From Gemmatales bacterium (GTDB lineage: Bacteria > Planctomycetota > Planctomycetia > Gemmatales > Gemmataceae), in NCBI GenBank assembly GCA_038227745.1, contig JBBRPS010000015.1, forward strand, positions 501-32,500: a stretch of DNA of 32,000 nt, in the 5' to 3' direction. The notes beneath the pieces were generated by a model. That model ran no database searches. It worked only from the letters and a program-made list of their open reading frames with translations, and had not been told where the DNA came from. The stretch's first letter is position 1; each line of letters begins with the position of its first letter. Shown piece after piece: positions 14,764 through 32,000 of the stretch. The position numbers and the translations under genes are program-made.

Positions 14764-15620
14764 AGGACTCAGTTCCGGTGGACGGCCGGCCGATAGCGCG
14801 CAGAGCGAACGGCGTCACCGGCTGTCGCTGGCCGGAGAACGAGTGCGCGATCGGGATGGAATTCGGTCAAGGTCCCGCCCAGCCCGAGGAGAGGAGGAAC
14901 AGGCTGGAGAACACAAGGGGCGGGATTGGGAGAGGTCCGCCTTACGATACCATGTCAGGCCCTCATCGAGGAACGCACAACGCCGGTCGCCCCCTTTGAT
15001 GCAATCGCGGTGCCAAGGCGCTGACCGCGGCTGCGCGGAGTCCGGGCCATCGCTGCAACTTCCTTGGTTGCCACGGGGTTCCAGCGAGGGGGGTGGTGCG
15101 CGATACGCGGCGCGGGGCTGGGGGGCATGCACAAAGTCCAGGCAAAGACTGCGTGCGGAATGAACGTCACTCTCGGGCCGGAGCAGGTCGGAACGCTCCT
15201 GCAGCCAGCCGTTCCGGAATAACCGGCAGCGACGGAGCTTCTTACAATCCCGCGGTGCTTTCTACAACGGTGGACAGGAAGACGCCACGGGGGTCAGGAA
15301 ATGCGGTCGAGGCGTAAGCGTTGTATGAGTCATGGCTTGAGCGAATCTTGTCGGTCGCGTCGCGCCTCCGGCACGCTCCTTGCGTTAGTAAGCCATCGAC
15401 TCCGATCAACACCCGGGAAGAGGACACCAGAGGTCTTCCACACGCGGCCGTTCCCCCCACGGCCGTCCGCGGTTTCCCCCGACCGCGGAACGAGCCGGGC
15501 CGTCGCCGGAGGTTCCCCGACCTCCCGACCCTCGACGGTCCGGCGCCTGGCGTGTGCGCGACCCGGTATCCCTTCCTCCCATCTATCTCCCGCCGCAGAC
15601 CCTACCCCCGATCCCCCTTT

Positions 15621-15656
15621 GGCCACCCGCTCCCCCCAGCGGGTGGCCCTCTTTTT
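15621..15656 (+). terminator. Orphan intrinsic terminator in a 1.1-kb gene-free interval
   Basis: GGCCACCCGCT (15621-15631), loop CCCCCC, AGCGGGTGGCC (15638-15648): a perfect 11-bp stem followed by CTCTTTTTG. No stop codon occurs in any plus frame for more than 70 nt before it. Confidence 0.55.
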
Positions 15657-15886
15657 GCGCCGCGCCGCCGACGCCTCGCCAGAGGGCCGCGAAGGGAAAA
15701 CGAGGGAGAGCGATCCAGTATGCGCTGGACGCCGCCTTGCGCGGGGCGGTATGATCGGCAGGACGGCCGGTCGCGGTCGGCGGGGGCCGTGGCGGCCCTC
15801 GACCGCCTTGCGACCGAGCCCGCCCGCACCCGGCCTCACCGCGGAACCCAGTCGTTCCCTCGCAGCCCCACCCGGCGAAAGGTCTG

Positions 15887-16131
15887 ATGAGCAACTTGCC
15901 CAGCCCCCCCGACCGCACCAAGGCCGACTCGCCTTCGCCCCCCGACCCGGCCACCCGGCTGCTGCGCCTGTGGGAGGAGGGCGCGAGCCCCGACGTCCGC
16001 GAGGTGGTCGCCCAGTCCGGCCCCCTCGGGCCGGGGCAACTCCTCGCGGTCGTCCGCACCGACCAGCGCCAGCGCTGGCGGCGCCGCGAACCCGTCCTGG
16101 CCGAGACGTACCTGCAATGGTATCCCCCCCC
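15887..16131 (+). pseudogene. Detached N-terminal segment of the Ser/Thr kinase gene, out of frame because of an extra C
   Basis: MSNLPSPPDRTKADSPSPPDPATRLLRLWEEGASPDVREVVAQSGPLGPGQLLAVVRTDQRQRWRRREPVLAETYLQWYPP continues sensibly as LLDDPEQAVEVIQQEFLARQEL... only if the C8 run (16124-16131) is read as C7. 15887..20579 is 4693 nt, i.e. 3n+1. Confidence 0.65.
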
Positions 16132-16160
16132 TCCTGGACGACCCCGAGCAGGCGGTCGAG

Positions 16161-20579
<4,419 letters not shown>

Positions 20580-24483: not shown

Positions 24484-26964
24484 TCAGGCTTTTCCCGCCT
24501 TCCGGCGGCGCAACCCGATCCCGAACTGCCGCAGCAGCCCCGGGAGCTGGCGGACGAGGTTATAGTCGTACCTCTTCTCCTCCGCCGACAACTCCTGCCA
24601 CGCCTTGAGATTCGGATGACGCCGCTTGCCCTCGGCGCGCGGCCCCGGCGTCCAACCGTCCAGCAACCGCTCCACGTTCCAGCGGCCGTGCTCCATCTCC
24701 GCCAGCGTCCCCTCCTCTTCTGGCGTGAACGTAAAGGGCTCGCCCGCCCGCAGGTCGCCCGCGGGGAACGCCTCGATCCCCAGGTAGCGCAGCTTCACTG
24801 CGATGTGATCGACCAGCTGCAGACTCGACTCCTTGTACAGCGGCGGCAGTTCCTCCCACTCCGCCAGCGAAATGTTTTCGGCCTTCTTCGCACGCCGGTG
24901 CTCGTCGTGCAGACAGCGCGCCAGTTCCTCCCGCCGTTGGGCGACATCCGCGAAAGGCGGGAATGGCGCCTCGACGAAGTTCCACAGCGTCATCGCGTCC
25001 ACCGGCAGCCGCACCAGCCCCTTGATCGACCACCACTCCGCGTCCGCCGCCAGCTTGTTCGCCTCGCGGCCGCTGTCGTCTACCACACCCACCCGGGCCC
25101 CCAACGCCAGCGCCAGCCGGTACTCGAACGCCGCGATCCGCCCGCCGTTGATCCCGAGCAACTTCACGTCGGTCGCCCGGACGCCCGCCGCGAGCAGGTC
25201 GATCCAGTTCTGCAGCGGCTGCAGTGGCGTGAAGTCCCTGGCACCGGCCGTGTAGCACTCGTAGGCGGGGTGCGGTGCGACGCCCGCGGGCAGCGCCTCG
25301 GGGAGGTAGGCCACCGCACGGATCCGGCCACCGGACTCCGCCGCCAGCTCGCCGACCAGGCCGCTGATCCCCGCCGAGGTGCCGCCGGAGAGGATCGTGC
25401 CCGTGAACGTGGCGAACGTCGACCGCAGCAGCGTCCCGTACGCCTGCATCCGGGCCTCGACGCTCTCGTCACAGCCGCCCGCCACGATCACGACCCGCCC
25501 CCCGAAGTCCGGACCGTCCTGCGAACGGAGGCCTGCCAGGTGTGCCGGCGCCCCGGCGTCGGCCCGGACGGCCTTCCCCAGCAGGAGCAGCCGTCGGACC
25601 CAGTCCGCCCCCTCCGGCAGGCCGCTCGCCCCGTCCAGCTGATCCACGACCGCCAGGGCGGCGTCGAACATGAACTCGGCCCCGGAGCGCACCGCCCGCG
25701 CGTAGGCCGCCAGACTCTCGTACGGCTGGCCCCGCAGCAGGTGCAGTTCGCCGAGCTGGAAGTACGCCCAGGGCAGGTTCACCTCCGCCTCGATCTGGTC
25801 GCGGCAACGGCGGATGGCTGCGTCCAGGGTCGGCTGCAGCAGAGCCAGGAACGAGGCGCTCTTCGTCTGGCCGATCCGGCCGCGCACGCACCCCACCAGC
25901 ACACGCGGGTTGGCAGGGTCCTTCTCGAAAGCCCTCTCGTACCACTGCCGGGCCGCGCTCGCGCCCCCCTCCCCCGCGCCGGCCAGTGCGTCCGCCAGGG
26001 CCATGAGCCCCTCGACGTCCTCGGGGTCGGCGCGGACGGCATCCTCGAGGAAAGCCCTTCCCTCCCGGTGGCCCGGACCGCCCGGGTCTCCCTTGTGCTG
26101 CTCGCACAGGGCGATCCCGGCGCACAGGCGGAGGCGGTGGGGCGGTCGCCGCGCGAAATCCTTCACGAGCGCCGTCACCCGGTCCCACTTCCCCAGGCGC
26201 AGCGCCAGGCGGGCGATCTGGTGGGCCAGGCCCGCGTTGCCGGGATCCTTGCTAAACACCAACTCCAGCACTTCCAGCTCGTGCTCCGCCTCGGCCGAAC
26301 TCTTGTCCCCGGCGACGCCGGTCTGGTAGGCGGTGACGGCGTCCGCGATCCGCGTACAGGCCTCGTCGACCGCCTCCAGCAGGGCGGCCATCTGGGCGTA
26401 CTCGCGCTCCAACCGGGCCGGCACCAGGAAGCCGCTCTTGTACAGGCGGTCGTGGCCGACGTCCGCCCAGCAGTGCTCGGCAATGGTGCGCACCTGGACC
26501 TCCGCCCGCAGGTCCCGGCGCAGGGCCCCGGGCTCGACCGGGACGTCCTCGGTGGGGAAGATCCCGTTCCGGAACTGCACGACGTGGTGGACCGAGCGAT
26601 ACCAGAATTCCCGCGCGCGCAGGTGCTTGGCCGGGTCGTGCTCGGCCACCTCCTCGACCCGGAAGTGCTTCTTGATCCAGGCGCTGAAGGCGTGCGCCTC
26701 GGCCCGCGTGTGAACGATGACCCGGGCGCCGCACAGGTCGATCATCTGCACCAGCGGCTCGCGGTAGCCCTTGCGCAGGATCTTCTCCGCGAAGCTCACG
26801 ATGCTCTTCGTCCGGCTCTGCACCAGGGCGTGGGGGGCGACCACCAGGGCGGCGTGTTTCAAAATCCGCTCGAGGCTTTGGGTGTACGCCTCGCACTCGG
26901 GGCGGATGGCCTCGAAGAGGCAGACCTGCCCCTCAAACCATTGCCGATCAACCGTTCCGCTCAT
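24484..26964 (-). CDS. Multidomain RelA/SpoT-like nucleotide pyrophosphokinase - TPR - SLOG (TRPM/LSDAT-type) - RyR-domain protein
   Basis: Start placed at ATG 26964 (MSGTVDRQWF) behind GGGAGAG. RelA/SpoT blocks: SRTKSIVSFAEKILRK, DLCGARVIV, FWYRSVHHVV, AEVQVRTIAEHCWADVGHDRLYK. Helical repeats at about aa 220-488. SLOG-like VVIVAGG...GTILSGGTSAGISGLVGE...LLGINGGRIAAFEY...VVDDSGREANKLA at about aa 489-670. Two RyR-like units: LHDEHRR...WEELPPLYKESSLQLVDHI and EMEHGRWNVERLLDGWTPGP...KRRHPNLKAWQELSAEEKRYDYNLV. Confidence 0.85.
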   Translation of the reverse strand: MSGTVDRQWFEGQVCLFEAIRPECEAYTQSLERILKHAALVVAPHALVQSRTKSIVSFAEKILRKGYREPLVQMIDLCGARVIVHTRAEAHAFSAWIKKHFRVEEVAEHDPAKHLRAREFWYRSVHHVVQFRNGIFPTEDVPVEPGALRRDLRAEVQVRTIAEHCWADVGHDRLYKSGFLVPARLEREYAQMAALLEAVDEACTRIADAVTAYQTGVAGDKSSAEAEHELEVLELVFSKDPGNAGLAHQIARLALRLGKWDRVTALVKDFARRPPHRLRLCAGIALCEQHKGDPGGPGHREGRAFLEDAVRADPEDVEGLMALADALAGAGEGGASAARQWYERAFEKDPANPRVLVGCVRGRIGQTKSASFLALLQPTLDAAIRRCRDQIEAEVNLPWAYFQLGELHLLRGQPYESLAAYARAVRSGAEFMFDAALAVVDQLDGASGLPEGADWVRRLLLLGKAVRADAGAPAHLAGLRSQDGPDFGGRVVIVAGGCDESVEARMQAYGTLLRSTFATFTGTILSGGTSAGISGLVGELAAESGGRIRAVAYLPEALPAGVAPHPAYECYTAGARDFTPLQPLQNWIDLLAAGVRATDVKLLGINGGRIAAFEYRLALALGARVGVVDDSGREANKLAADAEWWSIKGLVRLPVDAMTLWNFVEAPFPPFADVAQRREELARCLHDEHRRAKKAENISLAEWEELPPLYKESSLQLVDHIAVKLRYLGIEAFPAGDLRAGEPFTFTPEEEGTLAEMEHGRWNVERLLDGWTPGPRAEGKRRHPNLKAWQELSAEEKRYDYNLVRQLPGLLRQFGIGLRRRKAGKA

Positions 26965-26978
26965 GACACTCTCCCGAG

Positions 26979-27043
26979 GCTGCAGGTCAGGATTTTCAAC
27001 CTGACGGAGTTGACTTGTTGGGCTGGGAATCCTGACCTGCAGC
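26979..27043 (-). promoter_or_regulatory. Perfect 16-bp inverted repeat abutting the RBS of the RelA/SpoT-SLOG gene
   Basis: GCTGCAGGTCAGGATT (26979-26994) and AATCCTGACCTGCAGC (27028-27043). A competing 6-bp pairing exists between GTCAGG (26986-26991) and CCTGAC (27000-27005). On the mRNA strand the stem ends 3 nt before GGGAGAG-N7-ATG, and no U-tract follows. Confidence 0.5.
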
Positions 27044-27062
27044 AAATCGAGGGCACGCTGCG

Positions 27063-28310
27063 TCAGAGCAACCCGCCGTACCGAATACTGGACAGGACGT
27101 GCATCAGGACGAGGGCCAGCAGGGCCCAGGCCGCGGGGGCATGCACCAGCAGCCAGCCCCGCGTCAGTCGCCGGAACCAGTATTCCAGGTCCATCTGCCG
27201 CCGCTCCTCGACCCAGAGCCACAGCTGGTCCACCCGGCCGACTTCCCCGGGGGGCGCCAGCTCGCGCGCACGCAGGTAGTGGTTGCGCGGCACCGGCTCC
27301 AGCGCCTCGGCGCTCAACAGCCAGCCCCAGGAAGGGAACCCGGAGCGCAGGTAGCCGCTCACCTCTTCGGCGAAGAAGCGCTTGACGGTCTCGGGCGGCC
27401 GGTCACTCCGGCGGACCAGGTCAGGGCAGGCCGCCTCCAGGAAGAGGCGGTTGCGCCGCTCCGTCTGTGCCACGGAGAGGTCCTTGGCCCGCAGCGCCAG
27501 TAATTCTCGCCCCTCCGCCGTGAGCGGGAACCCGGCGGGGTCTTGCCCCTGCCAGAAGTTCTGCGACGTGAGCAGCTCATTCAGTGCGGCCAGGATCAGG
27601 CGCCGGTCATCCTCCGACCCCGGGGCGGCGTCGGCCACACGCCGGATCGCCGTCCGCGGGTTGGCGCCGAGCGGCTTCGCGTTCCAGACCACCCGGTGGA
27701 GCGGGCCGCCCGACTGGAGGATGGCCTTGCAGAATTCGCCCCAGGCGAGGACGTCCGAGTCGAGCACCATGGAGTAATTCTCCATCAACTCGGTGGAGCG
27801 GGCGATCAGGGCCAGCCGCTCGAACGCCAGCCGCTCGCCGGCCAGCTCGCGGTCGAGCAGCAGGGCCAGCAGGCGGAAGACAAGGCGCTGCAGCGCCATC
27901 CCGACCATGCCCGACAACAGGACCAGGGCGAACACGATGACCACCCACAGCGTCAGGCCGCCGCGGAAGAGGTGGCCGCGACCATGGAGGATCACCAGGC
28001 CGAAGGCGAGGTAGGCGGCGCCGATGTGCCAGCGCAGCCAGCGCGTCATGTTGCCGCGGGGCCGCTGCAGCGACAGGCGCCGCCAGGGGTACAGGTACGG
28101 GATCAACAGGGCGACCAGGGCGGGGTAGCCGAGGAAGCGGCATGCCCGGCGGAACGCCGGCGCCTCGACGTCCACGAAAGGGAGGCAGGCGAGGGTGAGC
28201 CAGGCGGCGGCGGGCATCACCGCCCAGAGGAAGAGGGCGTAGGGGTGCGGGGTGCCGGGGTTGGCGCGAGGGGGGGACATTGCTCGGCTCCAGGGGTGCG
28301 GCGCCTTCAT
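27063..28310 (-). CDS. Five-TM membrane protein with paired histidines in TM helices (possible b-type cytochrome-like anchor) and a large soluble insert
   Basis: Start placed at ATG 28310, which overlaps the upstream stop as ATGA. TM segments YALFLWAVMPAAAWLTLACLPFV, FLGYPALVALLIPYLYPW, WHIGAAYLAFGLVILHG, LTLWVVIVFALVLLSGMVGMAL and C-terminal WLLVHAPAAWALLALVLMHVL. The ORF-track extension to 28790 is an Arg-rich overlap with the upstream gene. Confidence 0.78.
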   Translation of the reverse strand: MKAPHPWSRAMSPPRANPGTPHPYALFLWAVMPAAAWLTLACLPFVDVEAPAFRRACRFLGYPALVALLIPYLYPWRRLSLQRPRGNMTRWLRWHIGAAYLAFGLVILHGRGHLFRGGLTLWVVIVFALVLLSGMVGMALQRLVFRLLALLLDRELAGERLAFERLALIARSTELMENYSMVLDSDVLAWGEFCKAILQSGGPLHRVVWNAKPLGANPRTAIRRVADAAPGSEDDRRLILAALNELLTSQNFWQGQDPAGFPLTAEGRELLALRAKDLSVAQTERRNRLFLEAACPDLVRRSDRPPETVKRFFAEEVSGYLRSGFPSWGWLLSAEALEPVPRNHYLRARELAPPGEVGRVDQLWLWVEERRQMDLEYWFRRLTRGWLLVHAPAAWALLALVLMHVLSSIRYGGLL

Positions 28311-30616
28311 GGACGGTCCCCGAGGGGGAGGGACCAGTTCTTGATGCCCGGGAACAGGTCGCGCGGCGCGCCGCGCGCGGCGGCGCCGTAGGGGCAGCTG
28401 GCGACGCAGGGCGGCTCCGCGCGGTCCGTCAGGCAGAGGTCGCACTTGGTCGCGACCAGCGCGAGCCCGGTCCGCTTTTTGAAGCTGTTGGTGGGGGCGG
28501 CGTCGCGGGCGGTGGGCGGCGGCTCCATGTGGATCACGTCGAAGGGGCAGGCCGGCACGCACTTCTCGCAGCCGATGCAGCGGTGCATGTGGATCTGCAC
28601 GATGCGCTTCTCCACGAAGCTGATGGCCCCCACGGGACAGGCGTCCTGGCAGGGGGCGTCGCTGCAGTGGACGCAGGCGGCGGCCACCGTCCACTTGCCG
28701 AAGTGCAGGTCGGGGTTGGAACGCTGGAACCGGGGCATGCCGTCGTGCGCCTCGGCACAGGCCTGCACGCACTGGTCGCAGCGCGTACACAGGTCCATGT
28801 CGATCCGCAGCAAGTTCGTGGCCGCCAGCAGCTTGGACGCGACCTCTTGCGGCGGGTCGCGAGGCGGCAGCAGTTCCAGGCTGTCCAGGCGCCGGTCGCG
28901 GGTGCGGTTGCGGTCCTGTTCGTTCTGCAATTTGCGGGCGACGAAGGGGTGTGCCCGCAGCAGCACCGTCAGGGCGGCACGGTTCAGGCGGACCAGGTGG
29001 GTCGGCGTGACGGCACGCACCGTCGCGGTATGGGCCGCCCCCTCGGCGGCACTGGAGACACCCAGGAAGCCGTGGCGGTCGTACTGGTTGACGAGGATCT
29101 CACCGCCGGCCGCCCGGCGCGTCGCGCGCACGGTGCCGCTGATCAGGAAGCCGAGGTGCTCCGACGGCTCGCCTTCCTGGGAAATCACCTGGTCCTTGCC
29201 GTGGTGCAGCAACTCGACGCCCCCGAAGACCGCGCGGAGTTGCCCCACCAGTTCCCGCAGTTCGGCGACGGTCAGCGGCGGCGGCGGCCCGGCGGGCCGC
29301 AGGCAGTCCGGCAGCGCCGCCGCGAGGAGCAGGTGGTTCAGGCGGATCGTCTCGTTCACCGTCAGCGCCGCGGGGCCGCGCTGCCGCAAGCCGCGCACCT
29401 CCTCGGTCGGCCCCCCCTCCGGCCAGGTGTCCCCGGAGGAAAGGTCGGCGTCCTTCAACAACTCGTTGAGTGCGCCCAGGAGGCGGTGGCGCAGCCCCCG
29501 GTCCTCGGCGGCCGCAGTGGCGGCCATGAGCCTGCGCAGGCCCGGGTCGAGCCGGCGCCGCACGAGGCCCGCGACGCCGTGCCGCGCTCCCTTCAGCCGC
29601 CCGAGGAAAGCGGGCCAATCCGTGACGTCGCTCTCGTACAGAGTGTCGCGGAACAGGCGGTTGTCGGTGAGGAGGGTCGGCAGCACGAGGTCGAGGAAGT
29701 CGTCATCGAACCTCCGCGCCACTTCCGGTGCGTTGGCGGCGATTTCGGCGAGCACCTCACGGCGGATCAGCAGGACCTCGCAGGGCGGTGTCGCGGCGTC
29801 GGGGTCCGCCTGGAGGGTGACGGCGCGCGGCGTGTTCCACAGCGCGCCGGGGACGCCCTGAAGTCGATCGAGGACGGGGCAGAGCAGGCCGGCGTCATCC
29901 ACGGAGGGCACGGCGCGCAGTTCCTGCCCGCGGGCTTCCGCCGAGGCGGGACCCAGTTCGAGAGGGTTCGCCAGCCAGCGCTCGTGGGGGCGGCGGCCGA
30001 GCCAGCGGCAGAAGGTCCGTGCGACCCACCCCTGGAAGTGCTGCCACGGCGAGCGCCGGGCGCCCGGACGGGTGACGTCGCCGACCCAGTCCTCCAGGGC
30101 GCCGAGCATGCCTCGCACGCGCCGCGCGAGGAGGCGAATGACGCGGGTCGGCCAGCGGGGCGGGGGCGCGTCCGGCCGCAGTCGGTCGGTGTGCTCGAGG
30201 GCCCAGCCCTCCAGGCGGTGCAGGGGCAGGCGCGGGCGATTCCAGCACTCGGCGAGGTCGTCGGTCCGGCCGGCCGCGACGGGCGGGCCTTCCGTGGGGC
30301 CGTGTCGGCGGTAGACGCGCATGCGGCCCTGGAGCAGCAGGGCGGCGTAGCCGCTGTAGCCCCCTTCGGGCATGATGACTTCGCCGGGGGCGAACCGGAT
30401 GAGGAAGAAATAGGTCTCCAGGTCGTATGGGGCCAGCTTCTTGCGCAGCGTGGCCAGCAGGGCAGGCGCTGGGGTGATCTTGCAGGCCGTGTCGGTAGGA
30501 TGGCAGAGGTGCTCCAGGACGGCTTCGGCTGACAGGGGCAGGGTTTCCACGGGCGTGACTTTCTCGGTTGGCGTCTCTTGGGTGGCGCGGCACAGGGGCC
30601 CGCCGCAGTCTAGCAT
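28307..30616 (-). CDS. Protein with two cyclic-nucleotide-binding-like domains and a C-terminal multi-cluster 4Fe-4S ferredoxin module
   Basis: CAP-effector-like stretches FFLIRFAPGEVIMPEGGYSGYAALLLQGRMRVY and LLHHGKDQVISQEGEPSEHLGFLISGTVRA...GFLGVSSAAEGAAHTATVRAVTPTHLVRL. Cys motifs CTRCDQCVQAC, CVHCSDAPCQDACP, CIGCEKCVPACP and CDLC...CVASCP. The start is uncertain: ATG 30616 is chosen to avoid a 5-prime overlap with the divergent gene, but in-frame ATGs exist up to 30835. Confidence 0.82.
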   Translation of the reverse strand: MLDCGGPLCRATQETPTEKVTPVETLPLSAEAVLEHLCHPTDTACKITPAPALLATLRKKLAPYDLETYFFLIRFAPGEVIMPEGGYSGYAALLLQGRMRVYRRHGPTEGPPVAAGRTDDLAECWNRPRLPLHRLEGWALEHTDRLRPDAPPPRWPTRVIRLLARRVRGMLGALEDWVGDVTRPGARRSPWQHFQGWVARTFCRWLGRRPHERWLANPLELGPASAEARGQELRAVPSVDDAGLLCPVLDRLQGVPGALWNTPRAVTLQADPDAATPPCEVLLIRREVLAEIAANAPEVARRFDDDFLDLVLPTLLTDNRLFRDTLYESDVTDWPAFLGRLKGARHGVAGLVRRRLDPGLRRLMAATAAAEDRGLRHRLLGALNELLKDADLSSGDTWPEGGPTEEVRGLRQRGPAALTVNETIRLNHLLLAAALPDCLRPAGPPPPLTVAELRELVGQLRAVFGGVELLHHGKDQVISQEGEPSEHLGFLISGTVRATRRAAGGEILVNQYDRHGFLGVSSAAEGAAHTATVRAVTPTHLVRLNRAALTVLLRAHPFVARKLQNEQDRNRTRDRRLDSLELLPPRDPPQEVASKLLAATNLLRIDMDLCTRCDQCVQACAEAHDGMPRFQRSNPDLHFGKWTVAAACVHCSDAPCQDACPVGAISFVEKRIVQIHMHRCIGCEKCVPACPFDVIHMEPPPTARDAAPTNSFKKRTGLALVATKCDLCLTDRAEPPCVASCPYGAAARGAPRDLFPGIKNWSLPLGDRP

Positions 30617-30695
30617 GCCAGGGGGGCCGGCACGCCGCAAGTATTTTTTCAGGCCAGCCGGTGACACCGGCAACACCGTGGCGGACAGATAATCC

Positions 30696-30724
30696 TTGCA
30701 AACGGTGTCCTTCTTCTCGATACT
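30696..30724 (+). promoter_or_regulatory. Weak candidate promoter for the divergent TPR-SLOG-like gene
   Basis: TTGCAA (30696-30701), 17 nt, GATACT (30719-30724), in the AT-richer divergent intergenic region. Each hexamer matches the consensus at 4 of 6 positions. Confidence 0.3.
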
Positions 30725-30788
30725 CAGCGGAGCCCCAGCCGCCCCTGGCGGTATCCCATGACCCTTCCCCCTTCCGGCGAGAGCCCGC

Positions 30789-32000
30789 ATGGCCACCAGC
30801 ATCGAACGCCTGTTAGACCGGCTGAAGACGCACAAGGCCGACGTCCTGGATCTCCTTCAGGCCCACCGGACCCGGGCGGACGAACCGCACTGGCGGCAAG
30901 ACCCCCGCCTCTACCGGGCCTTCGCCAAGAAGCTCATCAGCGCCGGCCACCCGACCCGGGCGGTCGAGCTACTCCGCGAGGCCCTGGAGTACCACCGGGC
31001 CGACCTCGACCTGAAGTACCTGCTCGCGCTGGCGTTCGCGCGCGGCGGCAACATCGTCCAGGCCAAACCCTATCTCGATGAGCTCCTGAAGGTGCCGGAC
31101 CTCGAGCCCCGCCTCCAGGTCGAGGTGTTCAGCCTCGAGGGCCGCTCCCTGAAGGACCGCTACGCGCGCACCGCCGACCCCGCCGTCCGGACCGAGCTCG
31201 CCAGGAAGTCGGCCGCGTGCTACCTCCGCGCCGCCCGGGTGTCGGACGACCTGGTCCCGCTGATCAACGCCGCGACCATGTCCCTGCTCGGCGACGACGC
31301 CGAGCAGGCCCGCGCCCTGGCGAGCAAGATCGTCCGGCGGGCGAAAGCCGAGCTCAAGGAGCCGGGCAAGGACCAGGACTACTGGCTCCTGGCGACGCTG
31401 GCCGAGGCCTCCCTGATCCTGGGGGACCTGAAACGGGTGAAGGACTGGATACTGCGGGCAGTCCAGGTGGCCGGCGACGACGTCGGCGACGTCGCCTCGA
31501 CGCGCCGCAACCTCCTCCTCCTCAAGGACAAGATCGAGGTCGGCGAGACGATCTGGGGGCTGTTCAACATCGGCACCGTTGTGGCCTTCTCCGGCCACAT
31601 GCTCGACCACCCGCGGCGGACGACCCGGGCGGCGCGTGCTGCCCGCTTCCCGCCTGACGCGGCCCTGGAGCGGCGCGTGGGCGAGGCGATCCGCGAGCGG
31701 CTCGCGAATCTCAACGCCACGGTCGGGTACTGCTCGGCCGCCTGCGGCTCGGACATCCTGTTCGCCGAGTGCATGCTGGAGCGGAAGAACGCCGAACTCC
31801 ACGTCATCCTGCCCTTCCACAAAGAGGACTTCTATCACACCAGCGTCGATTTCGGCCTCACGGAGATGGCTTCCTGGCGGGCGCGCTGCGACGCCGTCCT
31901 GGCGCGCGCCAAGCAGGTCCACTACGCCACGGCCGAGCATTACTTCGAGACTTTAGCAAGGTTAGTGCAGTCGCCCGACCTTCCGTTGCGCATAAGATGA
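30789..32000 (+). CDS. TPR / DUF4071-like helical-repeat protein with a C-terminal SLOG-like Rossmannoid domain, apparently truncated at the window edge
   Basis: MATSIERLLDRL start. Helical repeats with PLINAATMSLL. Then VVAFSGHMLDHP...RFPPDAALERRVGEAIRERL...VGYCSAACGSDILFAECMLERKNAELHVILPF, resembling YpsA/MoCo-carrier-type SLOG modules. The last 16 codons switch to rare codons (ACT TTA GCA AGG TTA ... ATA AGA) before a TGA at 31998-32000. Confidence 0.75.
   Translation: MATSIERLLDRLKTHKADVLDLLQAHRTRADEPHWRQDPRLYRAFAKKLISAGHPTRAVELLREALEYHRADLDLKYLLALAFARGGNIVQAKPYLDELLKVPDLEPRLQVEVFSLEGRSLKDRYARTADPAVRTELARKSAACYLRAARVSDDLVPLINAATMSLLGDDAEQARALASKIVRRAKAELKEPGKDQDYWLLATLAEASLILGDLKRVKDWILRAVQVAGDDVGDVASTRRNLLLLKDKIEVGETIWGLFNIGTVVAFSGHMLDHPRRTTRAARAARFPPDAALERRVGEAIRERLANLNATVGYCSAACGSDILFAECMLERKNAELHVILPFHKEDFYHTSVDFGLTEMASWRARCDAVLARAKQVHYATAEHYFETLARLVQSPDLPLRIR

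Follow-up and report, generated by a model that had tools for sequence, protein, structure and literature searches.

Organization of the locus

Positions 24484-32000 of the stretch of DNA analysed here (hereinafter, the window: 32,000 nucleotides from a Gemmatales bacterium of the family Gemmataceae, Planctomycetota; GenBank assembly GCA_038227745.1, contig JBBRPS010000015.1, positions 501 to 32,500 of the forward strand) carry four genes, denoted A to D, the products of which combine a RelA/SpoT-type alarmone synthetase domain with several putative nucleotide-binding domains, a ferredoxin module and a membrane protein. The principal finding is that A and B make up one unit and that this unit is linked to C, the gene for the synthetase-like enzyme, in six independent genomic contexts; gene D is probably a decayed bystander. 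The four genes and the spacer between B and C are as follows.

28307-30616, minus strand: gene A, 769 aa (747 aa if translation starts at GTG 30550), a cytoplasmic protein composed of a CAP-like domain in two halves, a helical module, another CAP-like domain and a four-cluster ferredoxin
27063-28310, minus strand: gene B, 415 aa (405 aa from ATG 28280), a membrane protein with five predicted transmembrane (TM) helices and a ∼200-aa helical cytoplasmic insert
26965-27062, minus strand: B-C spacer, 98 nt, with a perfect 16-bp inverted repeat (arms 27028-27043 and 26979-26994, 33-nt loop)
24484-26964, minus strand: gene C, 826 aa, RelA/SpoT - TPR-S - SLOG (LSDAT type) - RyR/R12
30789-32000, plus strand: gene D, 403 aa, stop codon at 31998-32000, a truncated TPR-S and Rossmannoid protein

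The initial annotation of this stretch described three same-strand genes running from 30616 to 24484, and these coordinates are confirmed, in particular, by the independent gene call on a Logan contig from the same organism, which yields identical A (769 aa) and C (826 aa), with ATG 28280 as the start of B (405 aa). The ATGA start/stop overlap reported between A and B is present in the sequence, though the later start of B at ATG 28280, which is the choice of the gene callers and is compatible with the homologue alignment, is equally likely because the gap between A and B in the homologues is short. For A, the alignment of homologues suggests that the true start is GTG 30550 (747 aa, METLPLS...). 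Genes A and D are divergent and share an upstream region of 172-238 bp. The perfect 16-bp hairpin in the 98-nt spacer, likewise described initially, is found as stated. The predicted fold of the spacer has an energy of -60.3 kcal/mol (z = -5.5 compared with shuffled sequence), and a Shine-Dalgarno-like GGGAGAG follows the hairpin immediately before the start codon of C. The hairpin lacks a U-tract and draws no terminator call, matches no Rfam family above chance and has no second copy of its arm in the window.

The GC content of the window is 63-76%, with neither a compositional break nor mobile-element genes between 24 and 32 kb, and the window genes are ordinary chromosomal ones, such as those for an rpoD-type sigma factor, dnaG, a NirB-like nitrite reductase, tsaD and a Ser/Thr-kinase-WD40 protein. 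Such a gene content agrees with a Gemmataceae-like planctomycete, as does the closest species-level locus, which comes from a Gemmataceae metagenome-assembled genome.

Domain architecture of the C family

The product of gene C consists of four domains.

26305-26838, minus strand: RelA/SpoT synthetase domain (∼aa 43-220; PF04607, 56.1 bits against a cut-off of 27)
25561-26244, minus strand: TPR array (∼aa 241-468), homologous to the TPR-S module of D
24985-25512, minus strand: SLOG/LSDAT-type Rossmannoid domain (∼aa 485-660) with the Gly-rich motifs G496G497, G527G528T529 and G607G608...E614
24505-24927, minus strand: RyR/R12 domain (∼aa 680-820; H759-x2-W762 and D800; PF02026, 36.1 bits against a cut-off of 27.4)

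This RelA/SpoT-TPR-SLOG-RyR layout had been proposed when the stretch was first annotated, and it is borne out by Pfam searches together with an alignment of 29 family members, the LSDAT match being weak in the window copy. The RelA_SpoT and RyR families are each recognised in 29/29 of these proteins. The synthetase motifs of C are intact (R51xK53xxxS57xxxK61, D76xxG79xR81, Y122RSxH126, E155xQ157xxT160 and H171xxxY175K176), the catalytic columns R51, K53, S57, K61, K65, D76, G79, R81, Y122, H126, E155, Q157, T160, H171, Y175 and K176 are invariant among the 29 homologues, and the motif classes RxKxxxSxxxK, DxxGxR, YRSxH, ExQxRT and HxxxYK are kept throughout the alignment. The only PDB relatives of the synthetase domain are the RelP/RelQ small alarmone synthetases (E 1.6e-8 with the single sequence, 4e-19 with the profile); structures of toxSAS or Tas1 show no match to it at E<1, and Pfam detects no HD hydrolase domain in C.

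The TPR-S family itself (PF20308) matches 9 of the 29 homologues, and other TPR families match the C protein of the window. Comparison of the C and D families with hhalign aligns residues 241-468 of C with 38-269 of D (probability 92.9%, E 3.8e-7), and in both proteins a Rossmannoid domain comes directly after TPR-S; by this layout, C and D are parallel designs with differing nucleotide-generating ends. The LSDAT_prok family (PF18171) scores 19.8 bits in the window protein, below the cut-off of 25.4, and matches 26 of the 29 homologues at E<=0.01 (best E 2.2e-8); the glycine columns of the SLOG domain are invariant or near-invariant among them.

The RyR profile of the C family matches RyR Repeat12 structures (E 5e-28) as well as bacterial RyR-like proteins. 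In the 29 homologues, H759 is invariant, and conservation of W762 and D800 reaches at least 90%. Domains of the PF02026 family contain a pocket for nucleotides, in which 2'/3'cADPR (cyclic ADP-ribose) is bound and in one case, RyDEP, cleaved, via His, Trp, His and Asp (2026 preprint, PMC13232231), and RyR Repeat12 binds ADP and AMP-PCP (PMC12627627). The H759, W762 and D800 of C are spaced as H75, W78 and D117 of RyDEP, a comparison of spacing and not of directly aligned sequences, and are the likely counterparts of these residues; the equivalent of RyDEP H100 is not conserved.

A search for C homologues recovers at least 195 proteins, and nearly all of the 120 best listed span the full length, with 34-47% identity and the same architecture; those with a named source come, among others, from Anaerolineae, Bacteroidota, Proteobacteria, Acidobacteria and Methanobacterium. 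In a few variants, a NUDIX or KaiC domain is fused to the protein, and no full-length C is present in phage and plasmid collections. Literature searches for the C architecture, TCAD9 or TPR-S did not find a paper that describes this architecture. The C family is a widespread group of multidomain small-alarmone-synthetase-like enzymes without an experimental study in the searchable literature, the component domain types of which have already been catalogued.

Genes A and B form one unit

The A protein shows four recognisable regions.

29717-30424, minus strand: first CAP-like domain (∼aa 65-300), split by a ∼130-aa insert, with a stretch resembling a phosphate-binding cassette, GALWNTPRAVTLQA, that keeps Arg264
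29225-29542, minus strand: helical module of ∼100 aa (aa 359-464), homologous to the insert of B (aa 221-325; 27336-27650)
28907-29254, minus strand: second CAP-like domain (∼aa 455-570) with the remodelled phosphate-binding cassette GFLGVSS...HTATVRA
28365-28819, minus strand: four-cluster [4Fe-4S] ferredoxin module (C610/613/616/620, C648/651/656/660, C680/683/686/690, C725/728/737/741)

The two CAP-effector-like domains and the multi-cluster ferredoxin recognised in the initial annotation are supported by Pfam, hhalign and the 16 invariant cysteines. The first CAP-like domain is missed by Pfam; compared separately with cNMP domains using hhalign, its N-terminal half reaches 86-91% probability and the half with the cassette 64-90%. 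Its cassette reads GA...RA, with the Arg kept (R264 is an invariant column in the homologue alignment) and the Glu lost compared with FGE...R[ST]A. The second domain is matched by PF00027 (cNMP_binding) at aa 473-555 with E 1.6e-17 and aligns with canonical cNMP domains at 99.9% hhalign probability. Its cassette was rightly described at the outset as having both the canonical Glu and the canonical Arg replaced: it has GV...HT in place of the GE...RS of CRP-type proteins (Glu->Val, Arg->His). The form G[VIL]...H[STA]A is common to the closest clade of A homologues, and the distant relatives retain FGE...R[ST]A, so that the remodelling is a derived, conserved change, which suggests a changed ligand. 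The match between the cNMP domain of A and that of PycTIR is weak (E 3e-5).

The C-terminal part of A consists of the ferredoxin, with four CxxCxxCxxxC(P)-type motifs and matches to several Pfam Fer4 families at aa 600-750; Pfam and NCBIfam detect no helix-turn-helix (HTH) family in the protein. The NCBIfam matches are to HydN, AegA, DmsB, NrfC and HybA-type subunits, those to HydN, DmsB and NrfC being all far below the equivalog cut-offs, and the PDB matches are to HycB3 and HycB4 (1.8e-15). Inspection of the N-terminal sequence reveals no signal or Tat motif.

Gene B encodes a membrane protein with only ∼17 homologues, at 34-52% identity, among 5.8 billion clusters. The AlphaFold model (pLDDT, the predicted local distance difference test, of 72) has helices at 23-41, 51-80, 88-109, 118-151 and 357-411, predicted to be five TM helices in a topology consistent with the positive-inside rule, with the TM region modelled at low confidence. 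The early description of B as a His-rich 5-TM protein therefore holds with respect to the five predicted helices but not to composition: the protein contains 9 His (2.2%). Five of these are invariant in an alignment of 14 sequences, and four of the five form H-x13-H pairs, H95/H109 in TM3 and H390/H404 in TM5. This is the pattern of a di-haem cytochrome b, with one putative haem near each membrane face and the insert of B, together with A, predicted to lie on the cytoplasmic side. No match to B is found in Pfam, NCBIfam or PADLOC, and because the Foldseek comparison of the model with the PDB yields nothing at E<1, it is the conserved histidines that carry the cytochrome b reading.

Wherever the upstream sequence suffices, B lies downstream of an A-type gene on the same strand, with the exception of the distant L086/L092, in which B-like genes occur alone. 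The 771-aa protein P0326 combines a pair of cNMP domains and a four-cluster ferredoxin with a B-like membrane domain in one chain, and in P0308, the C-terminus of an A-type protein is joined to a B-like domain. Furthermore, the linker of A (aa 359-464) and the insert of B (aa 221-325) are 38.5% identical over 109 aa (tblastn, E 4e-7), and the B hidden Markov model (HMM) matches linker regions of many A-like proteins. By this pairing, the fusions and the shared module, A and B are one unit. The shared helical module has the motif LNxLL...WP...RLNxLLxEAALP and is present in two or three copies in some relatives, such as P0280 and the A protein of L019, the second CAP domain of which is interrupted by one copy.

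The core of A, two cNMP domains and a four-cluster ferredoxin, has 1,031 representatives at E<1e-10. Distant members are fused to NuoG-like, pyridine-nucleotide-disulfide-oxidoreductase (TrxR-like), FNR-like or FHA modules, and the fusions to electron-input modules argue for real electron transfer under ligand control. Multihaem cytochrome c genes adjoin A-B in L019 (816-3790) and in a 34.8-kb contig of JGI 3300047160; no ORF (open reading frame) of the window contains two or more CxxCH motifs. A catalytic subunit, of the Mo-bisPGD (molybdenum bis-pyranopterin guanine dinucleotide), hydrogenase or similar type, is found neither in the window nor in any of the examined A-B contexts.

Linkage of the A-B unit to C

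Six independent contexts show A-B linked with C, the genes being in tandem, divergent or convergent; among them are all four closest homologues of C (46-47% identity).

The window: A, B and C in tandem (A>B>C)
L019, a Gemmataceae metagenome-assembled genome: A-B divergent from C
JGI 3300047160, 19.5-kb contig: A-B convergent with C (A>B> <C); a TrkA_N-RyR gene lies upstream, and past C come a gene of 391 aa, one for TCAD9+TPR-S, one of 170 aa and a NUDIX gene
JGI 3300047160, 6.8-kb contig: A-B convergent with C (A>B> <C)
L093: C convergent with B-A (C> <B<A), followed by divergent RyR-only and NUDIX genes
L094: C convergent with B (C> <B), the latter frameshifted, in several pieces and cut by the contig end

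The proteins of the linked contexts are 36-52% identical, and the GC content is 60-70%, so that the adjacency has outlived considerable divergence and at least three rearrangements. The tandem arrangement of B and C is present in no other genome than that of the window. In L082 (7753-9917), which has A-B without C within 10 kb, the A homologue is recovered in three tblastn pieces, with a called product of 358 aa, so that a pseudogene or sequencing errors are possible.

The extent of this association was gauged by a scan for C in one genome per GTDB species (185,579 species genomes), which gave 411 matching stretches; the best 80 of these, each close to full length, were retrieved along with flanks of 10 kb, and the flanking ORFs were clustered and searched with HMMs. 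The 80 loci span Chloroflexota, Planctomycetota, Bacteroidota, Gemmatimonadota, Actinomycetota, Nitrospirota, Verrucomicrobiota and several archaeal lineages, and include the following neighbours of C.

NUDIX: a specific gene of ∼140 aa, 50/80 loci, usually directly adjacent on the same strand, in a few cases further off or fused
Giant WD40 proteins: 31/80 loci
TrkA_N-RyR proteins of ∼600 aa: 20/80 loci
ClpB-like AAA+: 16/80 loci
YbjN: 12/80 loci
A and B: 1/80 loci (L019, the Gemmataceae genome)
D-type genes: 0/80 loci

Conservation of the neighbourhood around homologues of the 826-aa protein, named at the outset as the check on the proposed cluster, accordingly holds in part: the closest relatives combine A-B with C in six contexts, and across the family, A-B occurs in 1/80 and D in 0/80 loci. 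Because A-B accompanies C in only one of the 80 species-representative loci, the coupling is lineage-specific and not a general system; we conclude that A-B exists as a module in its own right that was recruited to C in a single lineage. In a rough neighbour-joining tree of C, the A-B-linked genes fall within a subclade dominated by the PVC (Planctomycetes-Verrucomicrobia-Chlamydiae) group, which comprises 22 of the 88 tips, and do not form a clean monophyletic group.

The C-adjacent NUDIX proteins are closest to the nucleoside-triphosphate (NTP) hydrolases MutT, NudG and NudI and not to ADP-ribose pyrophosphatases, and such a partner, adjacent or fused in 50/80 loci, fits an NTP-like or alarmone-like substrate. 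In the TrkA_N-RyR proteins (L001:4674-6470 and 19 further C loci), the N-terminus consists, by eye, of two hydrophobic helices flanking a pore-loop-like 'FYLALQLFTLESGS', and these proteins may be RCK/RyR-regulated and channel-like. Stand-alone RyR genes of ∼95 aa are found directly upstream of a D homologue (L085:9684-9971) and beside NUDIX in an A-B-C context (L093:8253-8537). RyR is a common currency that recurs across these systems.

Gene D

Gene D is transcribed divergently from A, from a start at 30789, and encodes TPR/DUF4071-like repeats, as first described (Pfam TPR-S, E 1.2e-8, and a weak DUF4071/MAP3K_TRAF_bd match). The ∼180 homologues of D are mostly ∼655 aa long, and the C-terminus of nearly all is a class III adenylate/guanylate cyclase domain (PF00211). 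The family architecture is TPR-S, a SLOG-like Rossmannoid domain with the motifs GHxxD, RFP, GxxSxAxGxD and GGT, and the cyclase; P0180 has an N-terminal RyR domain instead of the cyclase. The D protein of the window is 65% identical to P0143 until about residue 384-389 (after 'AEHY'; end of the tblastn match at 31949). The last ∼17 codons (31950-32000) are unrelated, AT-richer sequence, with a GC content of 53% vs 64% before, and the ORF ends at the window edge. The protein keeps TPR-S and the first ∼130 residues of the middle domain; the rest of this domain and the whole cyclase are missing. The tail matches none of the sequences compared in the analysis, and the only other contig with the locus (Logan, 8.2 kb) ends inside D. 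The end of D looks like a junction with foreign sequence: an insertion sequence end, a deletion or an assembly chimera.

A second, different SLOG-like domain had been assigned to D. The model of the middle domain (pLDDT 87) is indeed a six-stranded Rossmannoid fold, with G-x-x-S-x-A-x-G-x-D after strand 2 and GGT after strand 5, in loops placed as in LOG/SLOG proteins, and the best whole-domain Foldseek match is LOG (5its_D; probability 0.85, TM-score 0.41). That match is not significant (E 0.04, with none below 1e-3), and a profile search of PDB sequences yields nothing; a SLOG-like nature of this domain is plausible from the model.

The inclusion of D as a member of the cluster did not survive the comparison of genomes: D-type genes are absent from the other A-B contexts and from the 80 C loci, and the window copy is truncated. 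Two D homologues that were examined are adjacent to a RyR-only gene and a kinase-TIR gene, with no cNMP-binding neighbour. The TCAD9+TPR-S proteins encoded next to A-B in L082 and the JGI contig were considered as D orthologues and rejected: they share with D the TPR-S module only, in a different order. Hence D is probably a decayed bystander and appears to be non-functional as a cyclase here.

A tentative mechanism and its alternatives

The reading that we prefer, with somewhat less than even confidence, is that the locus is a lineage-specific composite nucleotide-signalling unit with A-B and C as the conserved core, in which A reads a nucleotide of the C system and gates the flow of electrons through B. 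In such a unit, ligand binding to the SLOG and RyR domains of C, possibly along with a protein cue received by TPR-S, would switch on the synthetase, which would 3'-pyrophosphorylate a purine nucleotide to give an alarmone-like product; in most genomes, the adjacent MutT-like NUDIX would clear this product (there is no such gene in the window). A would dock on B, and the CAP domains, the 4x[4Fe-4S] wire and the di-haem of B would together make a ligand-controlled transmembrane electron conduit. The remodelled CAP cassette of A (Glu->Val/Ile/Leu, Arg->His) would read the nucleotide made or sensed by C and thereby gate electrons through B, so that a stress or infection signal would be coupled to membrane energetics. 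A parallel could be the channel-like 2TM-RCK-RyR proteins found with C in other phyla.

A sharper version of this scheme, which we regard as rather improbable in its entirety, is that A-B is a dedicated nucleotide-gated electron-conduit receptor/effector of a non-canonical alarmone produced by a SLOG/RyR-controlled RelA/SpoT enzyme, with an ADP-ribose-type cue converted to a pyrophosphorylated nucleotide and then to a change in respiratory electron flow; elsewhere, the same family would drive RyR ion-channel-like proteins, a prokaryotic counterpart of RyR/TRPM2.

Several observations weigh against the A-B-C signalling unit. A-B occurs without C within 10 kb in L083, L087/88, L082 and the JGI 34.8-kb contig, and the PVC-dominated subclade of C has members without A-B (L006, L015, L021 and L065). 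The correlation between the cassette and the linkage is imperfect because the cassettes of L083 and L082 are remodelled without a nearby C; conversely, A of L019 is linked to C, yet retains the cassette Glu. There is no NUDIX gene in any frame of the window. B matches no known cytochrome family, by either HMM or fold, and its TM model is of low confidence. B and C may belong to separate transcription units, divided by the hairpin. Finally, we know of no CAP domain that binds (p)ppNpp-type ligands.

A somewhat unlikely alternative is an anti-phage or conflict role by abortive infection, in which C would be a self-contained sensor-effector like CapRel/toxSAS that, when its SLOG or RyR domain binds an ADPR-type signal derived from the infection, halts growth by synthesizing (pp)pApp or pyrophosphorylating tRNA, the NUDIX would be the antidote, and A-B would collapse membrane energetics. 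The patchy spread of the C family across phyla and domains, which implies horizontal transfer, is in line with such a role, as are the variability of its neighbours (NUDIX, WD40/STAND-like giants and ClpB-like AAA+ together with YbjN, besides NACHT or TIR genes in the vicinity of relatives), the existence of NUDIX-fused C variants and the recognition of Thoeris-type cADPR signals by SLOG and RyR domains in other proteins (PMC11204291, PMC13232231). The PADLOC matches to the candidate systems PDC-S33 (synthetase domain) and PDC-S07 (NUDIX), weak and at the domain level, point the same way. Against such a role, PADLOC matched no known defence system, phage and plasmid collections lack a full-length C homologue, the synthetase is closest to the housekeeping RelP/RelQ and not to toxSAS structures, and the window locus lies amid core genes, with neither mobile-element genes nor a NUDIX 'antidote'. 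As between conflict and physiology, patchy spread, variable neighbours and the SLOG, RyR and NUDIX components speak for the former, whereas the core-genome setting, the likeness to RelP/RelQ and the absence from mobile elements speak for the latter.

It is also conceivable, albeit unlikely, that the flow of information is reversed, with A-B sensing the redox state of the quinone pool or of a periplasmic carrier via haem and Fe-S clusters and signalling to C by contact, through TPR-S or the shared helical module, so that the alarmone made by C would be a response to respiratory stress. The Fe-S module of A resembles that of the redox sensor LdpA (Pfam), multihaem cytochromes lie beside A-B in two genomes, the long TPR array of C suits protein partners, and the locus is situated amid housekeeping genes (rpoD, dnaG, tsaD and nirB-like) with no compositional anomaly. 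Such a flow, however, leaves the two conserved CAP-type domains of A without a role in the pathway, and most C homologues lack A-B, so that C needs no such input. On balance, the evidence mildly favours the direction from nucleotide to redox module over that from redox to alarmone which was suggested initially.

A quite improbable possibility is that there is no coupling at all: A-B would be a respiratory accessory regulated by cNMP, C an alarmone synthetase acting alone and D a pseudogene, all mere neighbours, adjacent through shared ancestry within one lineage. Indeed, many genomes have A-B or C by itself, D is truncated and confined to the window context, most of the linked contexts are convergent and hence not one operon, and a strong hairpin separates B from C in the window. 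Nevertheless, adjacency kept through at least three rearrangements at 36-52% identity and 60-70% GC makes passive synteny unlikely, and given the rarity of both B (∼17 homologues) and C (411 stretches in 185,579 genomes), chance juxtaposition is negligible.

A Pycsar-like pair, in which the D cyclase makes a cyclic (pyrimidine) nucleotide, the CAP domain of A reads it, B is the membrane effector and C is incidental, could be envisaged from the class III cyclase at the end of the D family, the divergence of D and A from the shared 172-238 bp region and the weak similarity of A to PycTIR (E 3e-5) and of the D-family cyclase to PycC (E 5.5e-3), but is very improbable, given that the window D has no cyclase domain, that the other A-B contexts contain no D-type gene (the TPR-S proteins of L082 and JGI have the TCAD9 + TPR-S architecture) and that the D homologues examined elsewhere are not beside cNMP-binding genes.

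Relationship to known systems

Among the characterized alarmone synthetases, C is most similar to RelQ/RelP (YjbM, YwaC), which are the sole PDB relatives of its synthetase domain: it has all the catalytic motifs and no HD hydrolase. It differs from them in its size of 826 aa, the additional TPR-S, SLOG and RyR domains, and a distribution that is patchy and not lineage-wide. With toxSAS and the fused CapRel (PMC7229694, PMC9712102), C shares the principle of a RelA/SpoT-type enzyme held in check, and the NUDIX of C relatives is comparable to the small alarmone hydrolase (SAH) antitoxin of FaRel. A toxSAS toxin-antitoxin module was nonetheless rejected: C has 826 aa and four domain types, there is no antitoxin overlap, and the window contains no NUDIX, SAH or antitoxin-like neighbour.

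The putative LSDAT-type SLOG domain of C would belong to a family named after TRPM channels, and SLOG and NUDIX co-occur in C neighbourhoods, which is reminiscent of Thoeris ThsA and of TRPM2 (LSDAT/SLOG MHR1/2 and the NUDT9-H NUDIX); in ThsA, SLOG is the sensor of ADPR/cADPR (PMC11204291). Unlike these proteins, C has a pyrophosphokinase as its output, instead of a SIR2 NADase or an ion channel, and its NUDIX partner is MutT-like, not NUDT9-like. The likeness to the RyDEP phage glycosidase and sponges and to RyR Repeat12 consists in the above-threshold PF02026 match and in the His-x2-Trp and downstream Asp at the RyDEP spacing; in contrast to RyDEP, a stand-alone viral protein, the RyR of C forms the C-terminus of a multidomain enzyme of the cell. 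An origin of C from mobile elements was rejected, with none full-length in phage or plasmid collections and no compositional anomaly in the window.

The 16-Cys four-cluster pattern of A and the two TM helices of B with a His pair each recall FdnH-FdnI, NarH-NarI, HybA, HycB and DmsB. Compared with these complexes, CAP domains replace the catalytic molybdo- or hydrogenase subunit, B shows no detectable similarity to NarI, FdnI or the PDB, and there is a ∼200-aa insert in B; a molybdoenzyme-type complex was rejected for want of the partner catalytic subunit in the window and the examined A-B contexts. A has in common with Pycsar and CRP/FNR the CAP-type receiver domain, and a member of a class III cyclase family is its neighbour. 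Pycsar was rejected on the missing cyclase half of D, the lack of a TIR or 2-TM effector in A and the confinement of the D-A pairing to the window genome, and a CRP/FNR transcription factor on the lack of HTH and the ferredoxin C-terminus.

In the C family, an alarmone-type synthetase is combined with two domains for which recognition of immune ADP-ribose signals is now known, usually along with a dedicated NUDIX. If the proposed mechanism is correct, alarmone chemistry would extend into SLOG/TIR/RyR signalling, and A-B would be a type of effector or sensor new to nucleotide signalling, an Fe-S and haem conduit under CAP control. The more than 1,000 proteins with two cNMP domains and a four-cluster ferredoxin, with NAD(P)H-flavoprotein, NuoG-like or membrane modules as fusion partners, hint that ligand-gated electron transfer is common and overlooked.

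Other features of the window

The window also encodes, at 16161-20579, a 1,472-aa Ser/Thr-kinase + WD40 protein, ∼4 kb from C, a proximity that is perhaps coincidental because giant WD40 proteins are common in planctomycetes. The 1,579-aa ORF at 15330-20069 on the minus strand, antisense to the kinase-WD40 gene, is a high-GC artefact and not a gene.

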